Shown here: piece by piece, positions 17,021 through 32,636 of the stretch | How the letters are laid out: each line of letters begins with the position of its first letter | Position numbering within the stretch: position 1 is the first letter of the stretch | Assembly (NCBI GenBank): GCA_951406725.2 | Contig: OX597815.1 | Span: 48,236,001-48,300,000 of the forward strand | Source: Octopus vulgaris | Taxonomy: Eukaryota | DNA: 64,000 nt | Reading direction: 5' to 3' | Made by a program: the position numbers and the translations under genes | The notes under the pieces: generated by a model | Told to the model about the DNA's origin: nothing | Databases searched by the model: none | Seen by the model: the letters and a program-made list of their open reading frames with translations, nothing else

Positions 17021-17240
17021 ACAGGCTTCTACACAGTTTCCTTCTACCAAATTTACTCACAAGGAATTAGTTGGCCCAGGTCTATAATAGAAGATATCTG
17101 CCCAAGGTGCCATGCAGTGGAACTGAAACCAATATCACACGACTGCAAAATGAGCTTTTTAACCACACATCCATATCTACACCTATATTGTATCTAGAAC
17201 TACATTAGGAAAAAACAAAAAGAAAAATTAGCTTATAGCT

Positions 17241-17650
17241 GCAGGAGTGGCTGTGTGGTAAGTAGCTTGTTAACCAACCACATGGTTCTGGGTTCAGTCC
17301 CACTGCGTGGCACCTTGGGCAAGTGTCTTCTACTATAGCCTCGGGCCGACCAAAGCCTTATGAGTGGATTTGGTAGACGGAAACTGAAAGAAGCCTGTTG
17401 TATGAATATATATATGTGTGTGTGTTTGTGTGTGTGTGTCTGTGTTTGTCCCCCAAACATTGCTTGACAACTGATGCTGGTGTGTTTACATCCCAGTAAA
17501 TTAGCAGTTCAGCAAAAGAGACTGATAGAATAAGTACTTGGCTTACAAAGAATAAGTCCTGGGGTCAATTTGCTCGACCTAAGGCAGTGCTCCAGCATGG
17601 CCACAGTCAAACGACTGAAACAAGTAAAAGAATAAAAGAAAGAAAAGAAT
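17241..17650 (+). mobile_element. SINE family A, full length
   Basis: Head, microsatellite and (AAAAG)n tail. Confidence 0.92.
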
Positions 17651-30172: not shown

Positions 30173-30925
30173 CTGAAAGACAAGATCATAAGCAGAATTA
30201 CAAAGACACAAAAAAACGAAAGGTGAAGAAGAATGAAAACAAACAAAAAAAGGAAAAAAACCATCTGACTATGGAAAAATATTACACTGGAAACAAGCAA
30301 AGGTTGGTGACAGGAAGGGCATCTTATCATAAACAAAAATCTGCTTCAACGAATGATGAATGATCATTATGACTCAAGCCCCCAATTTGAATTCATGATA
30401 ATGGAATTAGATAGCAAAAGGGAGTCATGGAAATCTGCATGAGCAACAAAACAAAACAAAAAAAAATATAAAATTGTGGGGAAACTTTGATTCTTGGGAT
30501 TTCCACTTCTTATTTGTCGTTTGGTAATTATGATGAATTCTCTAGATGTGGAGATAATTTCAGTAAATCAAGAATGTATACTGTGCCGGCATGGCTGTGT
30601 GGTAAGAAGCTTGCTTCCCAACCATATGGTTTGGAAGTCAGTCCCACTATGTGGCACCCTGGGCTGACCAAAGCCTTGTTATTGGATTTGGTAGAGGGAA
30701 ATGGAAAGAAGCTCTGTGTGTGTGTGTGTGTATATATGTGAGTGTGTGTGTGAGTGTGTGAATTTTGAACAATGAGAATGAGTGCTCAATACTGCTTTGG
30801 TGGATAAAATTTCTGTAATTGTGTATTGAGGCTACCATTGGTTTCATGTTAAGAAAAACATCTTGATATCTTAACAATTTTTCAAGCCAATCACATGGAG
30901 GAATAGTGTTCATCTCCATTTTGAA

Positions 30926-31152
30926 TTCTTTTATTCTTTTACTTGTTTCAGTCATTTGACTGCAGCCATGCTGGAGCACTACTTTTAGTCACACAAACTG
31001 ACCTCACCCCAGGACTTATTCTTTGTAAACCTAGTACTTATTCTATTGGTCTCTTTTGCTAAACCACTAAGCTATGGGGACATAAACACAGCATTGGTTG
31101 TCAAGCAATGTTGGGGGGACAAACACAGACACACAAACATATACACATACAT

Positions 31153-31203
<51 letters not shown>

Positions 31204-31339
31204 ATGGGCTTCTTTCAGTTTCCGTCTACCAAATCCACTCACAAGGCTTTGGTTGGCCTGAGGCTACACTTGCCCAAGGTGCCATGCAGTGGGACTGAAC
31301 CTGGCAAGCTACTTACCACACAGCCACTCCTGCAACTAT
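30926..31339 (-). mobile_element. SINE family A directly downstream of the U6 copy
   Basis: Head atagttgcaggagtggctgtgtggtaag begins about 2 nt after the U6 T5 tract; small internal deletions; tail ends at 30926. Confidence 0.9.
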
Positions 31340-31341
31340 GG

Positions 31342-31449
31342 AAAAATAAGGACCACTTCACAAATTTGCATGTCATCCTTGCACAGGGGCCATGCTAATT
31401 GTCTCTGCATCGTTCCAATATTAGAATATGTACTGCTGGAGTCAAACAC
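31342..31449 (-). pseudogene. U6: U6 snRNA pseudogene/retrocopy
   Basis: Minus strand reads gcagtacatattctaatattggaacgatgcagagacaattagcatggcccctgtgcaaggatgacatgcaaatttgtgaagtggtccttattttt, colinear with U6. The ACAGAGA box is mutated to GCAGAGA, several CpGs have decayed to TpG, and no upstream TATA box is evident. The first ~12 nt are ambiguous because they overlap the inverted-repeat arm. Confidence 0.93.
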
Positions 31450-31536
31450 TATTCCTCCATGTGATTGGTTTGAAAAATTGCTCAGATATTAAGATGTTTA
31501 TCTTAACATAAAACCAATGGTAGCTTTAATACACAA

Positions 31537-31594
<58 letters not shown>

Positions 31595-32636
31595 ATGTAC
31601 TGTTCGATGATAGAAAGATCAATAAAATGACTGAAAGTATTAGTAGCACTTAAAAACATGCATTGTGTCCTTTAAATAAATAATATGTATCATCATCATC
31701 ATCATTTAACGTCCACTTTCCATGCTAACATGTGTTGGATGATTTGACTGAGGTCTGGTGAACCAGACTCCAGTCTGATCTGGCAGAGTATATACAGCTG
31801 GATGCCCTTCCTAACGCCAACTACTCCGAGAGTGTAGTGGGTGCTTTTATGTGCCACTGGCACGAGGGCCAGTTTGGTGGTACTGGCAACGACTACGCCC
31901 AAATGGTGCTTTTTATGTGCCACCTGCACAGGAGCCAGTCCAGCAGCACTGGCGACGACCTCGCTTGAATATTTCACATGCCACCAGCACAAGTGCTAGT
32001 AAGGCGACACGGTGACGATCATGCTTGAATGGTGTGCTTAATGTGCCATCGGCACGAAGGCCAGCTTGTTGTTCTGGCAACAATCTCACTCATATGTATA
32101 TATACATATATATAGAATATAAAGAAATTCAAAAGGCATGAGATGAATATATCTAGTTCAATAGCTGATTGAATTTACTGAATTTCAGCTGCATAGGACT
32201 CTACATTACACTCCTACATATTAGTTTACTATGTGGTTTGTAGCCTGGTCCACCATAGGAGCTCTTTTATGGTCACCACAGGATTATATAAATCCATATA
32301 TTGTGCCTGTAAGTTAGCAGTTCAGCAAAAGAAACTGATTGAAAGAGTACTAGGCTTTAAAAAGTAAGTAATGGAGTCAATAAGAATACTTCAAGGCAGT
32401 GCCCCAGCATGATAGCAGTCTAATGAGTGAAACAAGTAAAAGAATAACAGATGAAAGATACTTGACATACCTGTATTTGTCTAGGTATGTAAGTAGATAG
32501 GTACATAGGTATGAAAAAGAGGAGACAGGTGTAAACAATGAGAAATTTCTGTTTAAATGAGGAATAAGAAAAGACAAGAAAGATAGAAAGAAATTGATGT
32601 AGGAAAAAAAGGGAGAAACAAACAGAAATGTTAATA

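Follow-up and report, generated by a model that had tools for sequence, protein, structure and literature searches.

U6 snRNA joined to SINEs in Octopus vulgaris: one locus of a recurrent class of small-RNA/retroelement chimeras

How does U6 snRNA come to be fused, in the same orientation, to the head of a SINE? The question is raised by positions 30926-31449 of a 64,000-nucleotide stretch of the Octopus vulgaris genome (contig OX597815.1; hereafter the window), where a U6 copy runs through its 3' oligo(T) into a SINE on the minus strand. A sequence-only reading of the window had offered three origins: one chimeric retrotransposition event, membership of a composite U6-headed SINE family, or two sequential insertions.

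The fusion itself was confirmed by sequence and by Rfam, whose sole match in the window was U6 (RF00026) at 31449-31342 on the minus strand (89.3 bits, gathering threshold 44, E 1.6e-21). A five-T run at 31346-31342 closes the U6 part, a two-base linker, CC, occupies 31341-31340 and the SINE head starts at 31339; the co-oriented U6 oligo(T), CC and SINE head of the sequence-only reading are thus in place, as are the complete SINE body and its tail. That reading had also called the U6 near-full-length, which was right as to identity but not as to completeness: 31449-31437 are the inner end of an inverted repeat, whose 13 bases had been mistaken for the U6 5' end, and the retrocopy proper (31342-31438, minus strand) extends from about nt 11 to the 3' oligo(T), with ~10 nt missing from its 5' end. 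Octamer-like (-76 to -78) and TATA (-30) motifs were present in 4/4 U6 gene loci checked, whereas no octamer-like motif was found within 110 nt upstream of the CpG-decayed retrocopy, where the inverted-repeat arm stands instead. The U6 part is RNA-derived, as both the gene promoter and the gene flanks are missing. Compared with the genome's own U6 genes, it differs at 8/86 non-CpG and 5/12 CpG positions (edge bases counted).

The SINE (SINE-A, 30926-31339, minus strand) is a full-length, tRNA-type copy with two small internal deletions, and it differs from the majority of 53 copies at 7/253 non-CpG and 17/32 CpG positions. Its head carries A-box-like (31326-31316) and B-box-like (31301-31291) motifs, on which its tRNA origin rests because ARAGORN found no tRNA anywhere in the window; octopus tRNA-SINEs named OK, OR1 and OR2 were reportedly described by Ohshima and Okada in 1994. 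A central microsatellite follows, and then a LINE-type tail in which two predicted hairpins (30982-30949) precede short repeats ending at about 30926; the shape of these hairpins is common to three other tails, one of them the 3' end of an RT-encoding LINE. The body resembles many other copies within the window, including the one at 17235-17640. Because there is no U6 promoter and the unit contains an internal five-T run, neither its transcription nor its spread as one piece would be expected. Two repeats flank the unit (31682-31866 and 30592-30760): a (GAT)n-tailed one, of the kind fused to U6 at another locus (L060), and, on the plus strand, a partial SINE-A-like copy.

A 100-bp inverted repeat (arms 30819-30918 and 31437-31536, 89% identity), overlooked in the sequence-only reading, brackets the U6 and SINE exactly. 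It belongs to a host element whose long arm lies on the plus strand at 30760-30923 (terminus at about 30760, inner end at 30923) and whose short mirror arm, on the minus strand at 31437-31538, lacks the outer ~60 bp and adjoins a (TA)n microsatellite (31539-31592). A duplicated U6 promoter was ruled out as the source of this repeat, as the arm is a dispersed family, with 47 matches when 40 of its 1,487 candidates were scored. Among these 40 loci, 11 are two-armed, with unequal arms and differing spacers, and most lie beside (TA)n or (TG)n; the arms mostly differ by ~50-60 bp, and the spacers of intact copies are mostly 1-44 nt. Since the arms are unequal and the centres vary, a MITE became the less favoured interpretation, and this architecture suggests that the host is better read as a Penelope-like element. 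A search for a target-site duplication (TSD) around the U6 and SINE found none, in agreement with the earlier reading.

Is the junction unique? The sequence-only reading had proposed that many U6 copies joined to different SINE or LINE positions would mark a recurrent mechanism, and this is what the genome contains. Searching with the junction returned 39 other loci among 40 scored, and at 29/29 of those read U6 passed directly into a SINE-A head, in a set that is biased toward U6/SINE-A by its query. A U6-only set was therefore built on an exact 31-mer of the U6 3' end, which had 133 matches, 98 of them read among the 100 listed; after removal of gene copies (8), segmental duplicates of one event (5) and a second match in one palindrome (1), 84 independent non-gene copies remained. 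Of these, 71 were joined sense-to-sense to a retroelement and none antisense (checked by eye). SINE heads accounted for 32/71 joins (SINE-A 19, SINE-B 11, SINE-C 2). A further 29/71 fell where a 3' tail of ~50 nt begins, at its hairpin base, and were distributed over four tail types (6, 10, 7 and 6); the others lay inside SINE-A (4) or SINE-B (2), on LINE pieces (3) or on another repeat (1). The remaining 13/84 comprised 7 U6-centred palindromes, 2 apparent half-palindromes, 2 copies in (TA)n, 1 with a U6 gene's own flank and 1 that was unclear.

Genome-wide, capture-recapture with two U6 words gave ~520 U6 copies, a rough and probably low figure. Exact U6-end/SINE-head junctions numbered 29, compared with ~0.05 expected by chance (calculated from those ~520 copies and the 42,008 occurrences of the exact 22-mer of the SINE-A head) and 0 in a reversed-pattern control, while exact U6/hairpin-base junctions numbered 47, of which 5 came from one duplicated segment. 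The genome likely holds hundreds of independent fusions of U6, U6atac or 7SL with SINEs or LINE tails. The locus at 30926-31449 has the features of Group IV chimeras, an intact U6 3' end whose T tract passes directly into a non-LTR element of the same orientation, and it is an ordinary member of this known class. Several other arrangements were seen during the reading of U6 loci: one U6-tail chimera occurs six times at ~20-kb spacing on contig C1 in a tandem segmental duplication (L082-L087), one U6-joined SINE-A has its 5' half tandemly repeated at least 4 times (L165), and the candidate true U6 genes comprise a seven-copy tandem array on contig C1 and two other variants (L088-L094, L100, L034).

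The same junction positions recurred with other small RNAs. For U6atac, 26/29 non-gene copies (30 read of at least 43 matches) were joined to SINEs or tails, 15 at SINE heads and 10 at the hairpin base. For 7SL, 10/11 dispersed full-length copies (among 25 scored) were joined at the same breakpoints, with 8/10 at the hairpin base and 0/10 at SINE heads (p ~0.002). Thus, U6, U6atac and 7SL are found at a small, common set of breakpoints in SINEs and LINE tails. At least 43 matches is a large number for a minor-spliceosome RNA, and nearly all of those read are chimeric (L261-L290); L261, with a TATA-like motif upstream, is a candidate true U6atac gene, and the candidate true 7SL genes (L236-L248, L259) cluster on contig C5. 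The full-length 7SL retrocopies on LINE or SINE tails (L249-L258, L260) are raw material for a 7SL-headed SINE. A second SINE-A breakpoint, at ~263-266, was used by U6 twice and by 7SL once (L033, L145, L257).

These breakpoints are very sharply defined and come after a pyrimidine-A step. All four tail types have a predicted bulged hairpin in common, which the breakpoint precedes by a few bases on the 5' side, and a second predicted hairpin differs in sequence between tails with its pairing kept; the first hairpin was found in all five folds and both hairpins in three, with z below -2 in one fold only. One of the four tails is the 3' end of an RT-encoding LINE, and among the first 30 of its copies on contig C1, 18 run into ORF2. 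Pfam returned only RVT_1 as an indication of its clade; from ORF2 C-terminal motifs, we take it to be CR1/L2-type. In one copy (L196, L202), ORF2 is open over a long stretch and an endonuclease-like frame lies upstream. Of the 30 copies on contig C1, 2 are joined to U6, 6 begin at that point but have no U6, in 3 another SINE-like body is attached there and 1 retains ~10 more bases (read by eye); U6-free ends break at the U6 breakpoint in 9/30. Three loci with a SINE-like body on the LINE tail at this point (L181, L186, L194) and one with a SINE-head fragment there (L176) are candidate tail swaps. None of the 23 junctions in the LINE-type subset keeps the two C's that precede the breakpoint in the LINE, 18/23 contain bases absent from both partners (by hand, one ambiguous) and 9 begin with C. 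U6 gene flanks were rejected as the source of linkers, since linkers starting with C accompany U6 variants whose genes are flanked by other sequence; a comparison by eye with the target site gave no consistent match.

Fusions of a different form involve inverted-repeat arms. In the seven U6-centred palindromes (L107, L108, L114, L118, L136, L141, L151), the U6 3' end is fused to an AT-rich arm, and the arm and part of U6 are mirrored upstream; L128 and L159 are half-palindromes. The arm at L151 belongs to a second, younger family (98-100% identical, 1,713 candidates) with a Penelope-like asymmetry, in which a mirror was present in 23/25 copies, mostly without the last 32 bp. Both U6 (L151) and U6atac (L276) are fused to the arm of this family at one position, and the L151 mirror includes U6. 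Judging from these structures, the palindromes are possibly U6-Penelope chimeras, a class not found in the literature searched. No autonomous RT/GIY-YIG partner was evident by eye among ORFs of at least 150 aa beside the arms.

Which of the proposed origins fits the locus? Membership of a U6-headed SINE family, descended from one or a few master copies as SINEU is, would account for the 29/29 loci of the junction-biased set, and an octopus repeat table does carry 'U' and 'U-L1' SINE rows (PMC13282606, of which part was available). In a tree that combined 31 U6-joined SINE-A copies with 22 solo ones, the U6-joined copies were also slightly clustered (5/500 shuffles as low), which counts against their full independence, though both groups were sampled with bias, which may explain the clustering, and the bootstrap had not settled. 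However, the same tree required 12 label changes and rejected a single clade (AU p=0.0003), the 29 exact U6/SINE-A junctions comprised 23 different strings (the commonest found four times, counted by hand), and three U6 gene variants were each found with several partners. The junction string with the CC linker occurred once among the 48 U6/SINE-A junctions read. More than 1,000 U6-free SINE-A heads exist for each fused head, and the internal T run would terminate Pol III transcription of a U6-headed master. The copies arise independently, and the family reading is largely refuted; for this locus we find it barely credible. Nor do the copies qualify as a SINEU by the definition in the available part of Kojima (PMC4494074), because their junctions vary, their U6 sources are several and one clade is rejected; the partner in such a family would not be expected to abound without its snRNA head, whereas here 42,008 exact heads compare with 29 exact U6-joined ones.

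Two sequential insertions, in which the T tract of a U6 retrocopy later received a SINE or the SINE came first, would be consistent with a unit that lacks an enclosing TSD and in which U6 looks somewhat more diverged than the SINE. In target-primed reverse transcription, however, a SINE primed from the T tract would enter tail-first and antisense, yet 0/71 joins were antisense, and the 84 U6 copies read offer no solitary poly(A)-tailed U6 retrocopy as a target. In the sister SINE-B chimeras, moreover, 13-18-bp TSDs enclose both U6 and SINE in 4/10 units with a found end (3 more units had no end found), compared with 2/90 mismatched pairs. In SINE-A chimeras, a TSD of at least 8 bp was found in 1/42 units against 0.7 expected, after 14 more had been dropped because no tail was found, so that TSDs neither favour nor oppose a single event for SINE-A units; the divergences of U6 and SINE across chimeras were not significantly correlated (rho 0.32, p 0.18, n 19). 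At the locus itself, one element encloses both parts with its two arms, and joining the flanks would give a short stem and loop resembling the 1-44-nt spacers of most intact host copies. Two insertions are thus very unlikely. A single insertion likely made the unit, as the sequence-only reading had allowed and as the recurrence among U6, U6atac and 7SL copies supports. A more inclusive single event would derive the whole 780-bp structure from Penelope-type activity, in which the long arm was copied, synthesis jumped to the SINE 3' end and then to U6, and the product folded back to give the mirror arm. All parts have the orientation that this path requires, which arises by chance half the time, and U6 is built into the seven other palindromes of this style; but the mirror in those seven includes U6, whereas here it includes neither U6 nor SINE, and the spacer at another locus (L066) holds a later-looking element. 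We consider this path highly improbable.

For the joining step, we lean, on the arrangement of the parts and their junctions, toward a chimeric retrocopy made in a single insertion by a LINE RT that jumped onto U6 at the cDNA level. The RT would copy the whole SINE RNA up to its 5' end, then likely add a few untemplated bases and jump to the oligo(U) 3' end of U6. The SINE has the tail shape of the CR1/L2-type LINE, and the machinery of this LINE would be the mobiliser. Untemplated A's may pair with the U tail and would be read as long T runs, and added G's would be read as frequent C. Copying of U6 would have stopped ~10 nt short, and the cDNA would have been sealed, presumably without a TSD, into the loop of an existing inverted-repeat element. 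An activity of this kind is described for the R2 RT, which adds mostly A's untemplated at the template end, an addition required for jumping (PMC8857657, in the part available). The lack of a TSD at the locus, the lack of a long-TSD excess in SINE-A chimeras and the uncorrelated divergences all count against this explanation.

The main competitor is a join at the RNA level, in which RtcB would ligate the U6 2',3'-cyclic phosphate to the 5'-OH of a cleaved SINE RNA and the product would then be retrotransposed in one insertion. U6 and U6atac, both reported with a cyclic-phosphate end, dominate the RNAs sampled and contributed many chimeras; the sharp breakpoints after C or T ahead of an A run are those expected of nucleolytic 5'-OH ends; partners range over LINE, SINE and Penelope-like elements, and fusion of U6 to Penelope-like arms weighs against jumping in that the join is not the work of a single enzyme. 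The 0/10 7SL joins at SINE heads are likewise not explained by jumping alone. From vertebrates, in which these RNA end chemistries are known, the U6 5' end carries a methylated cap and 7SL ends in a 3'-OH. RtcB ligation, which was demonstrated in vitro and in extracts for human U6/L1, requires a cyclic phosphate on U6 and a 5'-OH on its partner and is blocked by a 5' triphosphate (PMC6789731, in the part available). SINE heads, the predicted Pol III triphosphate ends, nevertheless host 32/71 U6 and 15/26 U6atac joins, a position that would disfavour a 5'-OH, and at one locus (L098, around 1500-1760) a tripartite retrocopy consists of U6, a second U6 joined from nt 1 and a short LINE tail. Also unfavourable to ligation are the 7SL chimeras on the same sites, the extra untemplated bases at 18/23 junctions and the U6-free copies that break at the same point. 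A search for ribozymes that could give 5'-OH ends found no ribozyme family in 110 Rfam matches (E up to 0.5) on 12 palindrome loci. Jumping would be favoured because of the joins at predicted capped or triphosphate 5' ends, the use of 7SL and the apparently untemplated linkers, and we regard RtcB ligation as unlikely at this locus.

A broader proposal is that jumping onto Pol III RNAs with oligo(U) ends (U6, U6atac, 7SL) is routine for at least three kinds of RT (CR1/L2-type, long-TSD type and Penelope-like) and needs no RtcB, and that for CR1/L2-type tails it takes place at one structural point just 5' of the tail hairpins, where SINE bodies carry LINE tails. This is possible but tentative; if it were true, the genome would record SINE-making in progress. 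As the tail-hairpin breakpoint coincides with the border between SINE body and tail, the long-standing idea of template switching as the way in which SINEs acquire LINE tails becomes directly countable. For weighing ligation against RT jumping in U6 chimeras outside human L1, this genome is a large natural sample with base-exact junctions, and for several of these (SINE +1 ends, U6 nt 1, 7SL and untemplated linkers) the two models make different predictions. For annotation, chimeric pseudogenes make up most of the U6, U6atac and dispersed 7SL matches in the genome, and 'U-headed SINE' families produced by automated annotation of cephalopods may be sums of independent chimeras.

The sequence-only reading knew of no such fusion in a mollusc, and the literature searched indeed contained no description of a cephalopod U6-SINE chimera, although subscription papers, Repbase, the supplements of PMC4476161 and the annotation files of PMC13282606 could hold one; the available part of the latter (2026) lists for Octopus vulgaris, in a table and without description, two SINE families, 'U' and 'U-L1'. 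As prior art, that reading had named mammalian U6-L1 but overlooked vertebrate U6-SINE chimeras already published for platypus (Mon-1), anole (six) and opossum (one) (PMC4476161, in the part available). No paper on 7SL or U6atac chimeras made by LINE template switching was found in the literature searched, and PMC11838501, in its available part, treats human LINE-1 chimeras only. What is new here is the invertebrate host, the predominance of SINEs among the partners, the fixed breakpoints and U6 inside Penelope-like palindromes.

The closest known systems are the Group IV snRNA pseudogenes of Doucet et al. 2015 (PMC4476161, cited here from the part available), with 40 U6-L2/Mon-1 copies in platypus and 16 U6-AnolisSINE2 copies in anole. 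As in those species, the octopus chimeras fuse the U6 3' end in sense to a stringent-type LINE or its SINE, U6 is often 5'-truncated, LINE pieces are short, TSDs are short or absent (1-9 bp in 72.5% of platypus cases) and poly(A)-type U6 copies are lacking. Unlike platypus and anole, the octopus likely has hundreds, compared with 40 and 16 counted under stricter cut-offs, and many of its partners are full-length SINEs joined at the head; its fixed hairpin breakpoint is common to four tails, U6atac and 7SL, and the available part of PMC4476161 gives no such map. The human U6/L1 chimeras (Moldovan et al. 2019, PMC6789731, in the part available) also join a retroelement to an intact U6 3' end bearing 4-8 T's, but truncation of the human L1 partner varies without favouring any site, and few U6/Alu fusions occur (PMC4476161); in octopus, unlike human, SINE heads and hairpin bases dominate, and the linker bases and 7SL use fit ligation poorly. 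The crocodilian SINEU (Kojima 2015, PMC4494074, in the part available) likewise carries an snRNA at the 5' end of a retroposed unit, with template switching as the proposed origin. The hagfish SINE1-1_EBu, a 7SL head on a tRNA-SINE, is another small-RNA/SINE chimera, but it founded a family that is uniform and shares a 7SL deletion, whereas the octopus 7SL and U6 fusions show no sign of amplification (PMC7245038, in the part available). Finally, the host element resembles the Naiad Penelope-like insertions (Craig et al. 2021, PMC8557442, in the part available) in its inverted truncated copy, one-sided terminal extension and (TA)n neighbours, the extension being mostly ~50-60 bp in the host element and mostly 32 bp in the second family, compared with 30-40 bp in Naiad.
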